A stretch of 64,000 bases of DNA, taken from the NCBI GenBank assembly GCA_964610305.1, contig CAZSVL010000001.1, forward strand, positions 108,781-172,780, given 5' to 3'. The notes under the pieces are model-generated. The model saw only the letters and a list, made by a program, of their open reading frames with translations, made no database searches and was not told where the DNA came from. A program made the translations under genes and the position numbers. This stretch comes from an uncultured Gammaproteobacteria bacterium. Lineage in GTDB: Bacteria > Patescibacteriota > Patescibacteriia > Magasanikbacterales > JBBTXJ01. This document shows positions 41,735 through 43,496 of the stretch, in pieces; the stretch's first letter is position 1, and each line of letters begins with the position of its first letter.

Positions 41735-41805
41735 GTCATCGCGAGGAGTGAAACGACGTGGCGATCCCGACGGGATTGCTTCGCAGTTTCACTGCTCGCA
41801 ATGAC
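41735..41805. repeat. 71-nt hairpin repeat GTCATCGCGAGGAGTGAA...TTCACTGCTCGCAATGAC, copy 1
   Basis: near-identical to 43426-43496 (3 substitutions); imperfect long inverted repeat with central gcgatcccgacgggattgc hairpin; sits between atpD and atpG. Confidence 0.7.
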
Positions 41806-41813
41806 GGTGTTAT

Positions 41814-42716
41814 TTACGCCAATGCTGCGGCTCCGCCTGCGATCTCTGCAATTTCTTGCGTTATGGCGGCTTGACGCGCTTGGTTATAGGTTAAGGTTAA
41901 CTCATCTACGATATCATCGGCCGCATCGCTGGCGGATCTCATGGCCATCATGCGTGCGCTGTGCTCAGAGGCAATTGCCTCTAGTATGGCCTGAAAGACC
42001 GTAGTTTCAAAAAATCGTGGGAGCAATTGGGTGTATACCTGCTCTGGACTGGGTTCAAATAGGTACTCGCTGTCCTGATCTTGTCGGGGTCCTTCGTCGC
42101 TGCGCTCCTCAGGATGACGGGTTGGAAGCAGATTGGAAAATGGTAGAACTGTTTTGAGGATGGGCTTTTGAACGAGCGGTGACTGAAATTCTGTATAGAG
42201 CAGAGTTACTTTGTCTACTTTTTCGTTCTTAAATTCGTCCAGACATATTTGCCCCACGGGTTGGATCTGCAAATAGTCAATTACTTCTGTGATGTCCTCA
42301 AAGTTTGCGATGAGATCTAGCCCTTGTTTTGCCAGCGGACCTCTCCCTTTTTTTCCGACGGCTACAATTTTAACATCAACTCCGGCATCTTTGCGTTCTT
42401 TTGTATATCTAAGAGCTTCCCGAACAATGTTTGCATTCAAACCTCCACAAAGTCCTCTGTCCGAAGTCACTACTACTAATAGTTCTGTTTTATCTTGCAA
42501 AGGTTCACGCAGCAGCGGGTGCAGTGAACTCTCTGCCTTTTTAGCCAAACGAGCCAAAATACTCTGAGCGCTATCGCTGTAGCTTCTAGAATTCACAGCA
42601 GCCTCTGTGGCCTTTCGCATTTTACTGGCAGCAACAAGCTCCATCGCTTTGGTAATTTTTCGCGTGGATGCCACGGATTTGATCCGAGTACGTATAATTT
42701 TGGTTGAAGCTGGCAT
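41814..42716 (-). CDS. atpG: F1Fo ATP synthase gamma subunit
   Basis: 300 aa; gamma-subunit N- and C-terminal helices (MPASTKIIRTRIKSV...; ...QEIAEIAGGAAAL). Confidence 0.9.
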   Translation of the reverse strand: MPASTKIIRTRIKSVASTRKITKAMELVAASKMRKATEAAVNSRSYSDSAQSILARLAKKAESSLHPLLREPLQDKTELLVVVTSDRGLCGGLNANIVREALRYTKERKDAGVDVKIVAVGKKGRGPLAKQGLDLIANFEDITEVIDYLQIQPVGQICLDEFKNEKVDKVTLLYTEFQSPLVQKPILKTVLPFSNLLPTRHPEERSDEGPRQDQDSEYLFEPSPEQVYTQLLPRFFETTVFQAILEAIASEHSARMMAMRSASDAADDIVDELTLTYNQARQAAITQEIAEIAGGAAALA

Positions 42717-42759
42717 GTTTGTCTATTTACTATGTTTTGTTTTAACAGCCTATTCGGGC

Positions 42760-42788
42760 TTGACAGTAGAGTTGCTTTTTGCTATTGT
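42760..42788 (+). promoter_or_regulatory. sigma70 promoter TTGACA-17-TATTGT with TGC extension (opposite to the atp operon)
   Basis: ttgaca 42760-42765, spacer 17, tattgt 42783-42788; SD aaggagga 42801-42808; ATG 42813. Confidence 0.55.
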
Positions 42789-42812
42789 TTTTTTATAGCC
42801 AAGGAGGAGTGT

Positions 42813-43046
42813 ATGGATGCTGCACAGCAAGCTCACCATGCTCGTGTAATTGAGCCACGCAAGCGTGCTGGTACTAAGCGCAGACGCGAGATTTTCTATG
42901 CTACATTTAGGTTTCTGCTGGGCGTTATCTGCTTTGTTTTAGCTCTTACGCTTGTGACAAGAGAAAACACTCTACAAGAGGTCAGCACTTTTTCGGGAGT
43001 TTCGCTCCTGATTCTGTTTTATCTTACTGCAACTAAGAGAGCCTGA
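42813..43046 (+). CDS. small membrane protein (77 aa) with basic N-terminus
   Basis: strong SD plus ATG; MDAAQQAHHARVIEPRKRAGTKRRREIF then two hydrophobic segments; followed by a terminator. Confidence 0.5.
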   Translation: MDAAQQAHHARVIEPRKRAGTKRRREIFYATFRFLLGVICFVLALTLVTRENTLQEVSTFSGVSLLILFYLTATKRA

Positions 43047-43052
43047 TCTGTG

Positions 43053-43084
43053 ACCGCTTTTGATTAAAAGCGGTTTTTATTTTG
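43053..43084 (+). terminator. intrinsic terminator
   Basis: hairpin accgctttt-gatt-aaaagcggt (43053-43074) plus TTTTTATTTT. Confidence 0.65.
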
Positions 43085-43125
43085 GCAGACTAGCTAACGG
43101 GCTAATCAAGTTGATGATTCGCACA

Positions 43126-43154
43126 TTGACAAGTTGACCAAATACTGCTATGCT
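43126..43154 (+). promoter_or_regulatory. sigma70 promoter TTGACA-17-TATGCT with TGC extension
   Basis: ttgaca 43126-43131, spacer 17, tatgct 43149-43154; SD aaaggag 43169-43175; ATG 43182. Confidence 0.55.
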
Positions 43155-43181
43155 CGGTTTAGATCGTCAAAGGAGAAGATC

Positions 43182-43406
43182 ATGAAAGTAAGTAAGCTGC
43201 CTATTGTACTGCTGCTGTTTGGTTTCACGGCCTATCTTGTAGACATGCTCTACGCGCATATTCCCGCCAACGTTAGTGATTTTATTCTTTCTACCTTCCC
43301 GGTGACCGCCTTTGTGCTAACTATGCTGTGCATTGCTACGCTGCTGTCGGTGTTTGTTAAAGGAACAAAACCGTGGAGAGAGAATTCAGACCGTAACTCT
43401 GTTTAA
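43182..43406 (+). CDS. small membrane protein (74 aa)
   Basis: MKVSKLPIVLLLFGFTAYLV... two TM segments; own promoter and SD; T-run hairpin downstream. Confidence 0.5.
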   Translation: MKVSKLPIVLLLFGFTAYLVDMLYAHIPANVSDFILSTFPVTAFVLTMLCIATLLSVFVKGTKPWRENSDRNSV

Positions 43407-43425
43407 CGAGTGCGGTTTTTTTATT

Positions 43426-43496
43426 GTCATCGCGAGGAGTGAAGCAACGTGGCGATCCCGTCGGGATTGCTTCGCAGTTTCACTGCTCGCAATGAC
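43426..43496. repeat. 71-nt hairpin repeat, copy 2 (GTCATCGCGAGGAGTGAAGC...CACTGCTCGCAATGAC)
   Basis: see 41735-41805; lies between the small ORFs and the atpA stop. Confidence 0.7.

Follow-up and report, generated by a model that had tools for sequence, protein, structure and literature searches.

Repetitive extragenic palindromes (REPs) with a CGTC tag carry, according to the survey by Di Nocera, De Gregorio & Rocco (2013, BMC Genomics 14:522; PMC3733652), a CGTC or TGTC tag, stems that start with AT and a CCA-like tail of 3 nt. They are mostly arranged as head-to-head dimers, often heterodimers, with occasional intragenic units; they lie less than 20 bp 3' of open reading frames (ORFs), are thought to be transcribed and show no association with tyrosine transposase genes (PMC3733652). 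The superfamily includes RPE-4 and RPE-6 of Rickettsia and dRS3 of Neisseria, tags may be CCTC too, and the survey concedes that bulged or unusual members may have been missed (PMC3733652). In Neisseria, this type of repeat is represented by NTS (CGTCATTCCCGCGMAVGCGGGAATCYRG). SsnA, a nuclease of 94 aa with GIY-YIG as its single domain, binds and cuts NTS; it acts on single-stranded DNA only and does not bind RNA (Chenal et al. 2025, Nat Commun 16:2388; PMC11893778). Cutting by SsnA needs 3 nt before the palindrome and binding needs a C after it. Across phyla, genes homologous to ssn have Ssn-related motifs (SRM) at their flanks, different nuclease clades pair with different hairpin sequences, and in Neisseria Ssn has a role in natural transformation (PMC11893778). 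Here, we describe two copies of a 71-nt hairpin element in the F-type ATP synthase (atp) operon on a 64,000-nt stretch of contig CAZSVL010000001.1 (hereafter the window), which comes from a member of the Patescibacteria. Our reading, to which we assign a probability of roughly 70%, is that the copies are head-to-head dimers of CGTC-tagged REPs of the Ssn-linked class, that they were gained late in two atp spacers and that they were not the cause of the separation of atpA and atpG within the operon.

A repeat search of the window placed the copies at 41735-41805 (copy 1, in the atpG-atpD spacer) and 43426-43496 (copy 2, between the convergent atpA on the minus and a 74-aa gene on the plus strand), in direct orientation and with a spacing of 1,691 nt. 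They agree in 68 of 71 positions (96%); the differences are at element positions 19 (A/G), 21 (G/A) and 35 (A/T, in the loop), and beyond the element the flanks are unlike except for T-rich stretches and one G. Both copies are near-palindromes. As RNA, the plus strand was predicted to fold with -46.1 (copy 1) and -44.6 kcal/mol (copy 2) and the minus strand, which is the atp sense, with -41.7 and -37.5 kcal/mol; the z-scores were between -6.9 and -7.8, and none of 200 shuffled sequences folded as well. As DNA, copy 1 gave -24.2 and -21.4 kcal/mol (z = -6.4 and -4.9). The initial annotation of this DNA, made from the letters alone, had described near-identical 71-nt repeats with three substitutions, each forming an extended imperfect hairpin with GTCAT/ATGAC termini; both statements are borne out by the repeat search, our own reading of the copies and the stable folds with z of about -7 to -8. 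Within the window the motif GTCATYGCGAG occurs at these two loci only. A scan of the window against Rfam gave no match at gathering thresholds, a permissive Rfam scan of 41650-43600 gave only chance-level matches (E of about 1 or more), and a tRNA scan of the window found none.

Each copy consists of two inverted 33-nt units with 5 nt between them, the tags pointing outward and the tails facing each other. The layout of a unit is (C/T/G)GTC - AT(Y)GC - GAG - [GAA mini-hairpin] - G(W)(R) - GC(R)AT - CCC, where the inner hairpin is GT-GAA-AC in the left and CAGT-GAA-ACTG in the right unit; since the two arms are unlike, the 71-nt element is a heterodimer. In copy 1, the left unit (41734-41767, plus strand) reads GGTC-ATCGC-GAG-GAGTGAAACGAC-GTG-GCGAT-CCC, with GTC at its head, a foot that starts with AT and a C after the foot, and the right unit (41773-41806, minus strand) reads CGTC-ATTGC-GAG-CAGTGAAACTGC-GAA-GCAAT-CCC. 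In copy 2, the left unit (43425-43458, plus strand) is TGTC-ATCGC-GAG-GAGTGAAGCAAC-GTG-GCGAT-CCC and the right unit (43464-43497, minus strand) is identical to that of copy 1, so that the tags in the window are CGTC twice, TGTC and GGTC. A set of 725 units with an ATYGC foot was collected from 257 loci. In these, GTC is preceded by C in 51% and by T in 41%, the inner part opens with GAG in 89%, and a C follows the foot in about 94%, as it does in all four window units. Position 3 of the foot covaries (T-A in 606, C-G in 29, non-pairs in 12). The window units have CCC as their tail; in most units elsewhere it is CTC or CCA. Taken alone and folded as DNA, the right unit of copy 1 forms a foot and an inner stem of 5 bp each, the latter capped by a loop of 3 nt (-6.9 kcal/mol, z = -2.4).

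How do these units compare with the described ones? With the CGTC REPs, as characterised in PMC3733652, they share the unpaired tag, A-T at stem positions 1 and 2 and a tail that starts with C; both copies are head-to-head heterodimers that lie 8 nt after stop codons and between unidirectional or convergent genes, a further unit lies in frame within a gene, and no transposase is linked. With NTS and SRM they share the GTC that directly precedes the hairpin and the C that directly follows it, both kept in 4/4 units. Bradyrhizobium, described as rich in CGTC REPs in the survey (PMC3733652), carries the window sub-type too. The units differ in their build: the stems given there have 8-9 bp and loops of 4-5 nt, whereas in the window units, of 33 nt in all, a foot of 5 bp leads into a GAG/GWR internal loop and a variable mini-hairpin with a GAA loop. 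The host belongs to the Patescibacteria, a group for which the survey reported no CGTC REPs; the ATTGCGAG type may be one of the four families described there. Judged by sequence and layout, both copies are most probably ordinary members of the CGTC-tagged REP class that includes dRS3/NTS of Neisseria and SRM. The findings extend published work and do not reveal a new kind of system.

Units of this design are widespread. A scan of IMG/VR with the pattern GTCATYGCGAG-N40-60-CTCGCRATGAC found 103 stretches with dimers of 64-82 nt, in which the spacers vary and the inner hairpins of the two arms are often unlike. A unit 20-mer specific for the inner hairpin of the window, searched in bacteria with one genome per species, matched at least 120 genome stretches; units of this sub-type are present in well over ten phyla and in many Patescibacteria. 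Among the matches listed, the GC content of the loci ranges from 26% to 71%, and the hosts are Bradyrhizobium, Rickettsiales, Desulfobacterales, Nitrospira, Planctomycetota, Verrucomicrobiota, Bacteroidota, Spirochaetota, Firmicutes, Melainabacteria and about ten lineages of Patescibacteria. Most matches elsewhere are forward/reverse pairs 60-100 nt apart, but singletons and tandem arrays occur too. Because there are many related copies elsewhere, the 71-nt element is plausibly mobile. A blastn search of the PLSDB plasmids with the 71-mer gave no match, and a literature search by repeat sequence and by encoded-peptide strings returned unrelated primer matches only. A Logan contig of 1,715 bp with both ends inside repeats was considered as a sign of additional copies, but it is accounted for by the two known ones.

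The connection to GIY-YIG nucleases comes from a directed search. In two loci, one from Rickettsiales (L187) and one from Candidatus Woesebacteria, a patescibacterial lineage (L215), a gene for a protein of about 97 aa is bracketed by several GTCATYGCGAG units, and the only Pfam family matched by the protein is GIY-YIG (PF01541). The unit directly after the L215 gene, CGTCATTGCGAGGAGTGAAACGACGAAGCAATC, is nearly the left unit of the window. Relatives of the L215 protein were present in 77 metagenome loci, and the 64 of them with a substantial match were analysed. CGTC-type units lie within 400 nt of the gene in 50 of the 64 and on both sides of it in 39; their density is 3.29 per kb within this distance and 0.27 per kb beyond it, a 12-fold difference. 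Upstream of the gene, 29 of 44 loci have their nearest unit on the plus strand; downstream of it, 35 of 45 have theirs on the minus strand. The usual cassette has a plus-strand unit, about 27 nt, the gene, about 19 nt and a minus-strand unit, with the tags outward. Moreover, the foot of the hairpin tracks the clade of the nuclease: next to relatives of the L215 protein with at least 57% identity, 57 of the 64 nearest units have ATTGC feet, whereas next to those below 57% the feet are ATTCC, ATCCC or ATCCT and never ATTGC. Since like units in like orientation surround the gene of about 97 aa elsewhere, the 71-nt element looks like a gene-less miniature of this cassette of about 400 bp. New in these data are the extension of the CGTC/Ssn-type repeat system into the Patescibacteria, the correspondence of hairpin foot to nuclease clade and the observation that a bulged 33-nt sub-type outside the published search pattern still brackets GIY-YIG genes. 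This may be useful for cataloguing the specificities of Ssn nucleases and for asking how the repeats spread.

Several observations weigh against the assignment to an Ssn-linked class. The published SRM pattern, HGTCWYN(0-2)YYVSBRHN(0-5)WNVSBRGN(0-2)RNCYNB, has no match on either strand of the window, because it expects a stem of 7-9 bp where the window units have a 5-bp foot and an internal loop. The left unit alone folds no better than shuffled sequence (DNA parameters, z = +0.4). The proteins of L187 and L215, typed by Pfam PF01541, are putative members of cd10448, and their sole sequence relatives in the PDB are UPF0213 proteins, with a weak match (E = 2e-4). In the 64-kb window itself no GIY-YIG gene was detected with queries of limited sensitivity; the Ssn link in this genome is therefore inferred. 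A weak tblastn match of the GIY-YIG query at 61400-61621 (27% identity, E = 0.06) was discarded: it falls in a frame that shadows a 365-aa gene of the other strand, and it contains no GIY-YIG motif. Of the exact 71-nt sequence type these two copies are the only ones known, and an exact 22-mer from the right arm had no match in JGI metagenome contigs. Finally, to our knowledge nobody has demonstrated a copying mechanism for repeats of the CGTC/Ssn type.

The position of the copies invites another explanation. The operon is encoded on the minus strand in the order atpI-like, atpB, atpE, atpF, atpH, atpA, atpG, atpD and atpC, and its closest protein relatives are found in Patescibacteria near Uhrbacteria. 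atpA (F1 alpha; 43505-44998, stop codon 43505-43507; Pfam PF00006, PF00306 and PF02874) and atpG (F1 gamma; 41814-42716, stop codon 41814-41816; PF00231, E = 2e-95) are separated by two small genes on the plus strand, one for a 77-aa protein (42813-43046; its own TTGACA-17-TATTGT promoter and a terminator; no Pfam match) and one for the 74-aa, membrane-type protein (43182-43406, stop codon 43404-43406; its own promoter); the promoters of both are strong promoter-like sites. atpG is followed by atpD (F1 beta; 40344-41726, start codon 41724-41726), which was identified by its translation and syntenic position and whose ortholog in a relative with 90% AtpG identity, L002, matches PF02874, PF00006 and PF22919. 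The atpG-atpD spacer has 87 nt, of which copy 1 takes 71 and leaves 8 nt on each side. Copy 2 lies 8 nt 3' of the atpA stop codon and 19 nt 3' of the stop codon of the 74-aa gene. In agreement with the initial annotation, the repeats bracket atpG and the two opposite-strand small genes, and copy 1 is in the atpD-atpG spacer; copy 2 had been placed just before the atpA stop, but it lies 3' of this codon and thus outside atpA, between convergent genes.

From this arrangement it had been proposed that recombination between the repeats inserted, inverted or otherwise rearranged the segment of atpG and the small genes. The copies are indeed direct, 96% identical and 1.69 kb apart, they bracket exactly atpG and the two opposite-strand genes, and in distant relatives atpA and atpG are contiguous: in L227 and L228 (60-63% AtpG identity) the operon is compact, with atpA and atpG 67 nt or 1 nt apart and atpG and atpD overlapping or 5 nt apart. 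L002, however, tells against it. There, atpA is followed by three opposite-strand small genes and then by atpG, and the one beside atpA, for 73 aa, is orthologous to the 74-aa gene of the window (47% identity, E = 9e-21), yet neither 71-nt repeat is present on the L002 contig. The other small genes of the gap are unrelated (77 aa in the window, 68 aa and 229 aa in L002); apparently, the gap between atpA and atpG (42813-43406 in the window, 8567-9797 in L002) is a variable spot occupied by small genes without a Pfam match. At the end of atpA, L002 offers a clean empty site, GCT[ATAAAA]AAACC, against GCT[ATAAAA]CAAGAC-71 nt-A[ATAAAA]AAACC in the window. The atpG-atpD spacer of L002 contains a palindromic array unrelated to the 71-nt element, which precludes a clean empty-site comparison at copy 1. 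Since L002 is interrupted without the repeats and L227 and L228 are compact, the repeats are later than the interruption and not its cause. Furthermore, the order and orientation of atpG between atpA and atpD are normal, direct repeats that recombine would remove the segment between them and not insert it, and hundreds of unrelated genomes have single members of the family in their spacers. A rearrangement by recombination is thus highly improbable. Comparison of the operon in relatives, as suggested in the initial annotation, confirmed the contiguity of atpA and atpG elsewhere, but half of what had been named there beforehand as counter-evidence, an interrupted relative without the repeats, was found as well. 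Accordingly, the operon was compact at first; small genes then entered between atpA and atpG in an ancestor shared by the window lineage and L002, and the two 71-nt dimers were gained afterwards in the window lineage. This removes a tempting story of repeat-mediated rearrangement for the ATP synthase operon. What is seen instead is an operon with unusually wide spacers under colonisation by hairpin repeats, one of which lies within atpG and keeps its reading frame.

Could the hairpins have been kept for a function in the atp mRNA? E. coli REPs in malEFG are a model for such a role. The hairpins would then act as intercistronic stabiliser, processing site or attenuator and might set alpha:gamma:beta expression ratios. 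Intra-operon processing or termination signals had been the second suggestion of the initial annotation. Folding predicts that the RNA between atpG and atpD and the 3' end of the atpA message each contain a strong stem-loop, and the atp-sense hairpins could shield 3' ends or hinder ribosomes 8 nt upstream of atpD. The very stable atp-sense folds (-41.7 and -37.5 kcal/mol) are in line with this, as are the distance from the preceding stop codon, exactly 8 nt for both copies, and their shared orientation with respect to atp transcription; a third spacer, atpD-atpC, has a CGTC dimer that is conserved in L002, and according to PMC3733652 CGTC REPs are generally found at less than 20 bp 3' of ORFs and are probably transcribed. 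On the other hand, the tract that follows either hairpin on the atp-sense strand is A-rich and not U-rich, so that neither is a classical intrinsic terminator for atp transcripts. In copy 2, both left-arm substitutions are uncompensated and weaken the atp-sense fold, and SsnA does not bind RNA (PMC11893778). The close relative L002, at 90% identity, is without the 71-nt repeats at both sites, which argues against an essential role. Altogether, maintenance for mRNA function is an unlikely explanation.

Coming back to the reading as late-gained, Ssn-linked REP dimers, it is tempting to speculate on how the copies arrived. By analogy with SsnA of N. meningitidis, a cognate Ssn nuclease may be encoded elsewhere in the genome; it would bind the units as single-stranded DNA hairpins and cut a few bases 5' of GTC, and this activity might underlie the spread of gene-less dimers. 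The two copies are of one sequence type and were probably gained independently in two atp spacers, each 8 nt after a stop codon, once the window lineage had split from L002. We tentatively propose, as a possibility that is rather less likely to be right than wrong, that the 71-nt dimers are non-autonomous miniatures of a selfish cassette of about 400 bp, made up of a unit, a GIY-YIG ssn gene and an inverted unit, with the nuclease as the mobilising enzyme. If true, this would be a transposon-like class that uses a GIY-YIG nuclease and not a DDE, HUH or serine/tyrosine recombinase; the comparison with L002 would capture two recent insertions, with an empty-site comparator, in a reduced genome of the Patescibacteria; and the match of foot and clade (ATTGC versus ATTCC/ATCCT) would reflect co-evolving specificities of enzyme and site. 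Untargeted clustering of neighbouring ORFs at 103 viral and 120 genome loci gave no recurrent mobilising gene, and the clusters found beside the repeats comprise phage or gene transfer agent genes and common families (ABC ATPases, response regulators) only.

Mobilisation by better known enzymes has to be considered as well. REPINs and RAYTs, reportedly set out by Bertels and Rainey in 2011, come close in design. Like REPINs, the element has two inverted REP units with a short spacer that form a long hairpin, an unpaired tag 5' of the hairpins and no obvious target duplication; it is non-autonomous and spreads through intergenic regions, and like RAYTs a single-copy gene is bracketed by matching units. 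Were the element a REPIN mobilised by a RAYT, an IS200/IS605-type Y1 transposase, its tag should be GTAG, but it is (C/T)GTC, and the enzyme bracketed so tightly by the units is GIY-YIG instead of an HUH Y1 transposase. Moreover, REPINs form lineage-specific families, whereas the unit sequence of the window recurs across many phyla. With queries of limited sensitivity, no Y1 transposase was found in the window and one in about 223 repeat-bearing loci, at a distance of 1.4 kb from the unit, and PMC3733652 describes CGTC REPs as lacking an association with tyrosine transposases. A RAYT-driven origin is accordingly given very little credence.

Inverted ends of about 33 nt around a short core would also suit a conventional miniature inverted-repeat transposable element, that is, the joined terminal inverted repeats of an insertion sequence of the DDE type, and in comparison with L002 there is a possible 6-bp duplication, ATAAAA, at copy 2. 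This apparent duplication lies inside an A-run and is not distinguishable from chance, and 6-7 extra bases accompany the element. No transposase recurs among the neighbouring ORFs of the 120 genome and 103 viral loci; the units occur as singletons and tandem arrays too, and the inner hairpins of the two arms are unlike. Such an origin has only a very slim chance of being correct.

The ATYGC dimers are not the only CGTC-type repeats of this genome. Including them, the window holds two dimers of the ATYGC type and about five loci of other CGTC sub-types. One of these is the dimer in the atpD-atpC spacer (40211-40297), with a degenerate plus-strand unit at 40211-40238 and a minus-strand unit, CGTCATCCTGAACTTGATTCAGGATCCA, at 40271-40297. 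The latter is 28/28 identical at 12553-12579 of L002, which makes this insertion an older, shared one. The dimer reads ATCCTGAAC-TTG-ATTCAGGAT and is bracketed by inverted low-complexity arms that resemble (GGCATTAGGCATCAGGC), at 40164-40198 and 40308-40342. Further hairpin units with CGTC or TGTC tags are at 26250-26338, 38226-38300, 54980-55019 and 56485-56584, mostly as tags-outward dimers and with at least three other foot types (ATGCT, ATCCT, ATCCC); several CGTC sub-families thus coexist in this small genome.

The in-frame unit in atpG is a single one of the CGTC type, CGTCATCCTGAGGAGCGCAGCGACGAAGGACCCC (42076-42110, minus strand), and encodes ..RHPEERSDEGP.. in a hypervariable loop. At the same codon position (10601-10636) AtpG of L002 has a different unit, ..RHPDRPEGVEGS.. 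This suggests that a repeat within the gene is turned over while its site stays fixed. Another AtpG relative, P0003 (65-72% identity), has an extra insert, ..HVPSPSRGEGQGEGE.., near residue 60 that resembles peptides encoded by another kind of GC-rich repeat. Possibly, repeats have inserted into the AtpG loops of this clade time and again.

Other repeats in and around the operon are of different kinds. Arrays of a 14-nt tandem repeat (AAGTAACAAGTAGC) and its inverted complement, at 45974-46120 and 46431-46511, flank atpE (c subunit, 46207-46425), and comparable inverted arrays of (TATAGGCCATATGC)n are found in the atpG-atpD spacer of L002. A promoter-like repeat of 37-65 nt (TTGACAAAAT...TGTGCTATAGT, with an extended -10) lies upstream of several genes, at 18372-18436, 39167-39203, 55414-55478 and 57350-57414 and, inverted, at 37799-37867. 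Finally, a 46-nt direct repeat with 78% identity and a T-run at its end is present at 37552-37597 and 38007-38052; the two copies may be related terminators or small RNAs.

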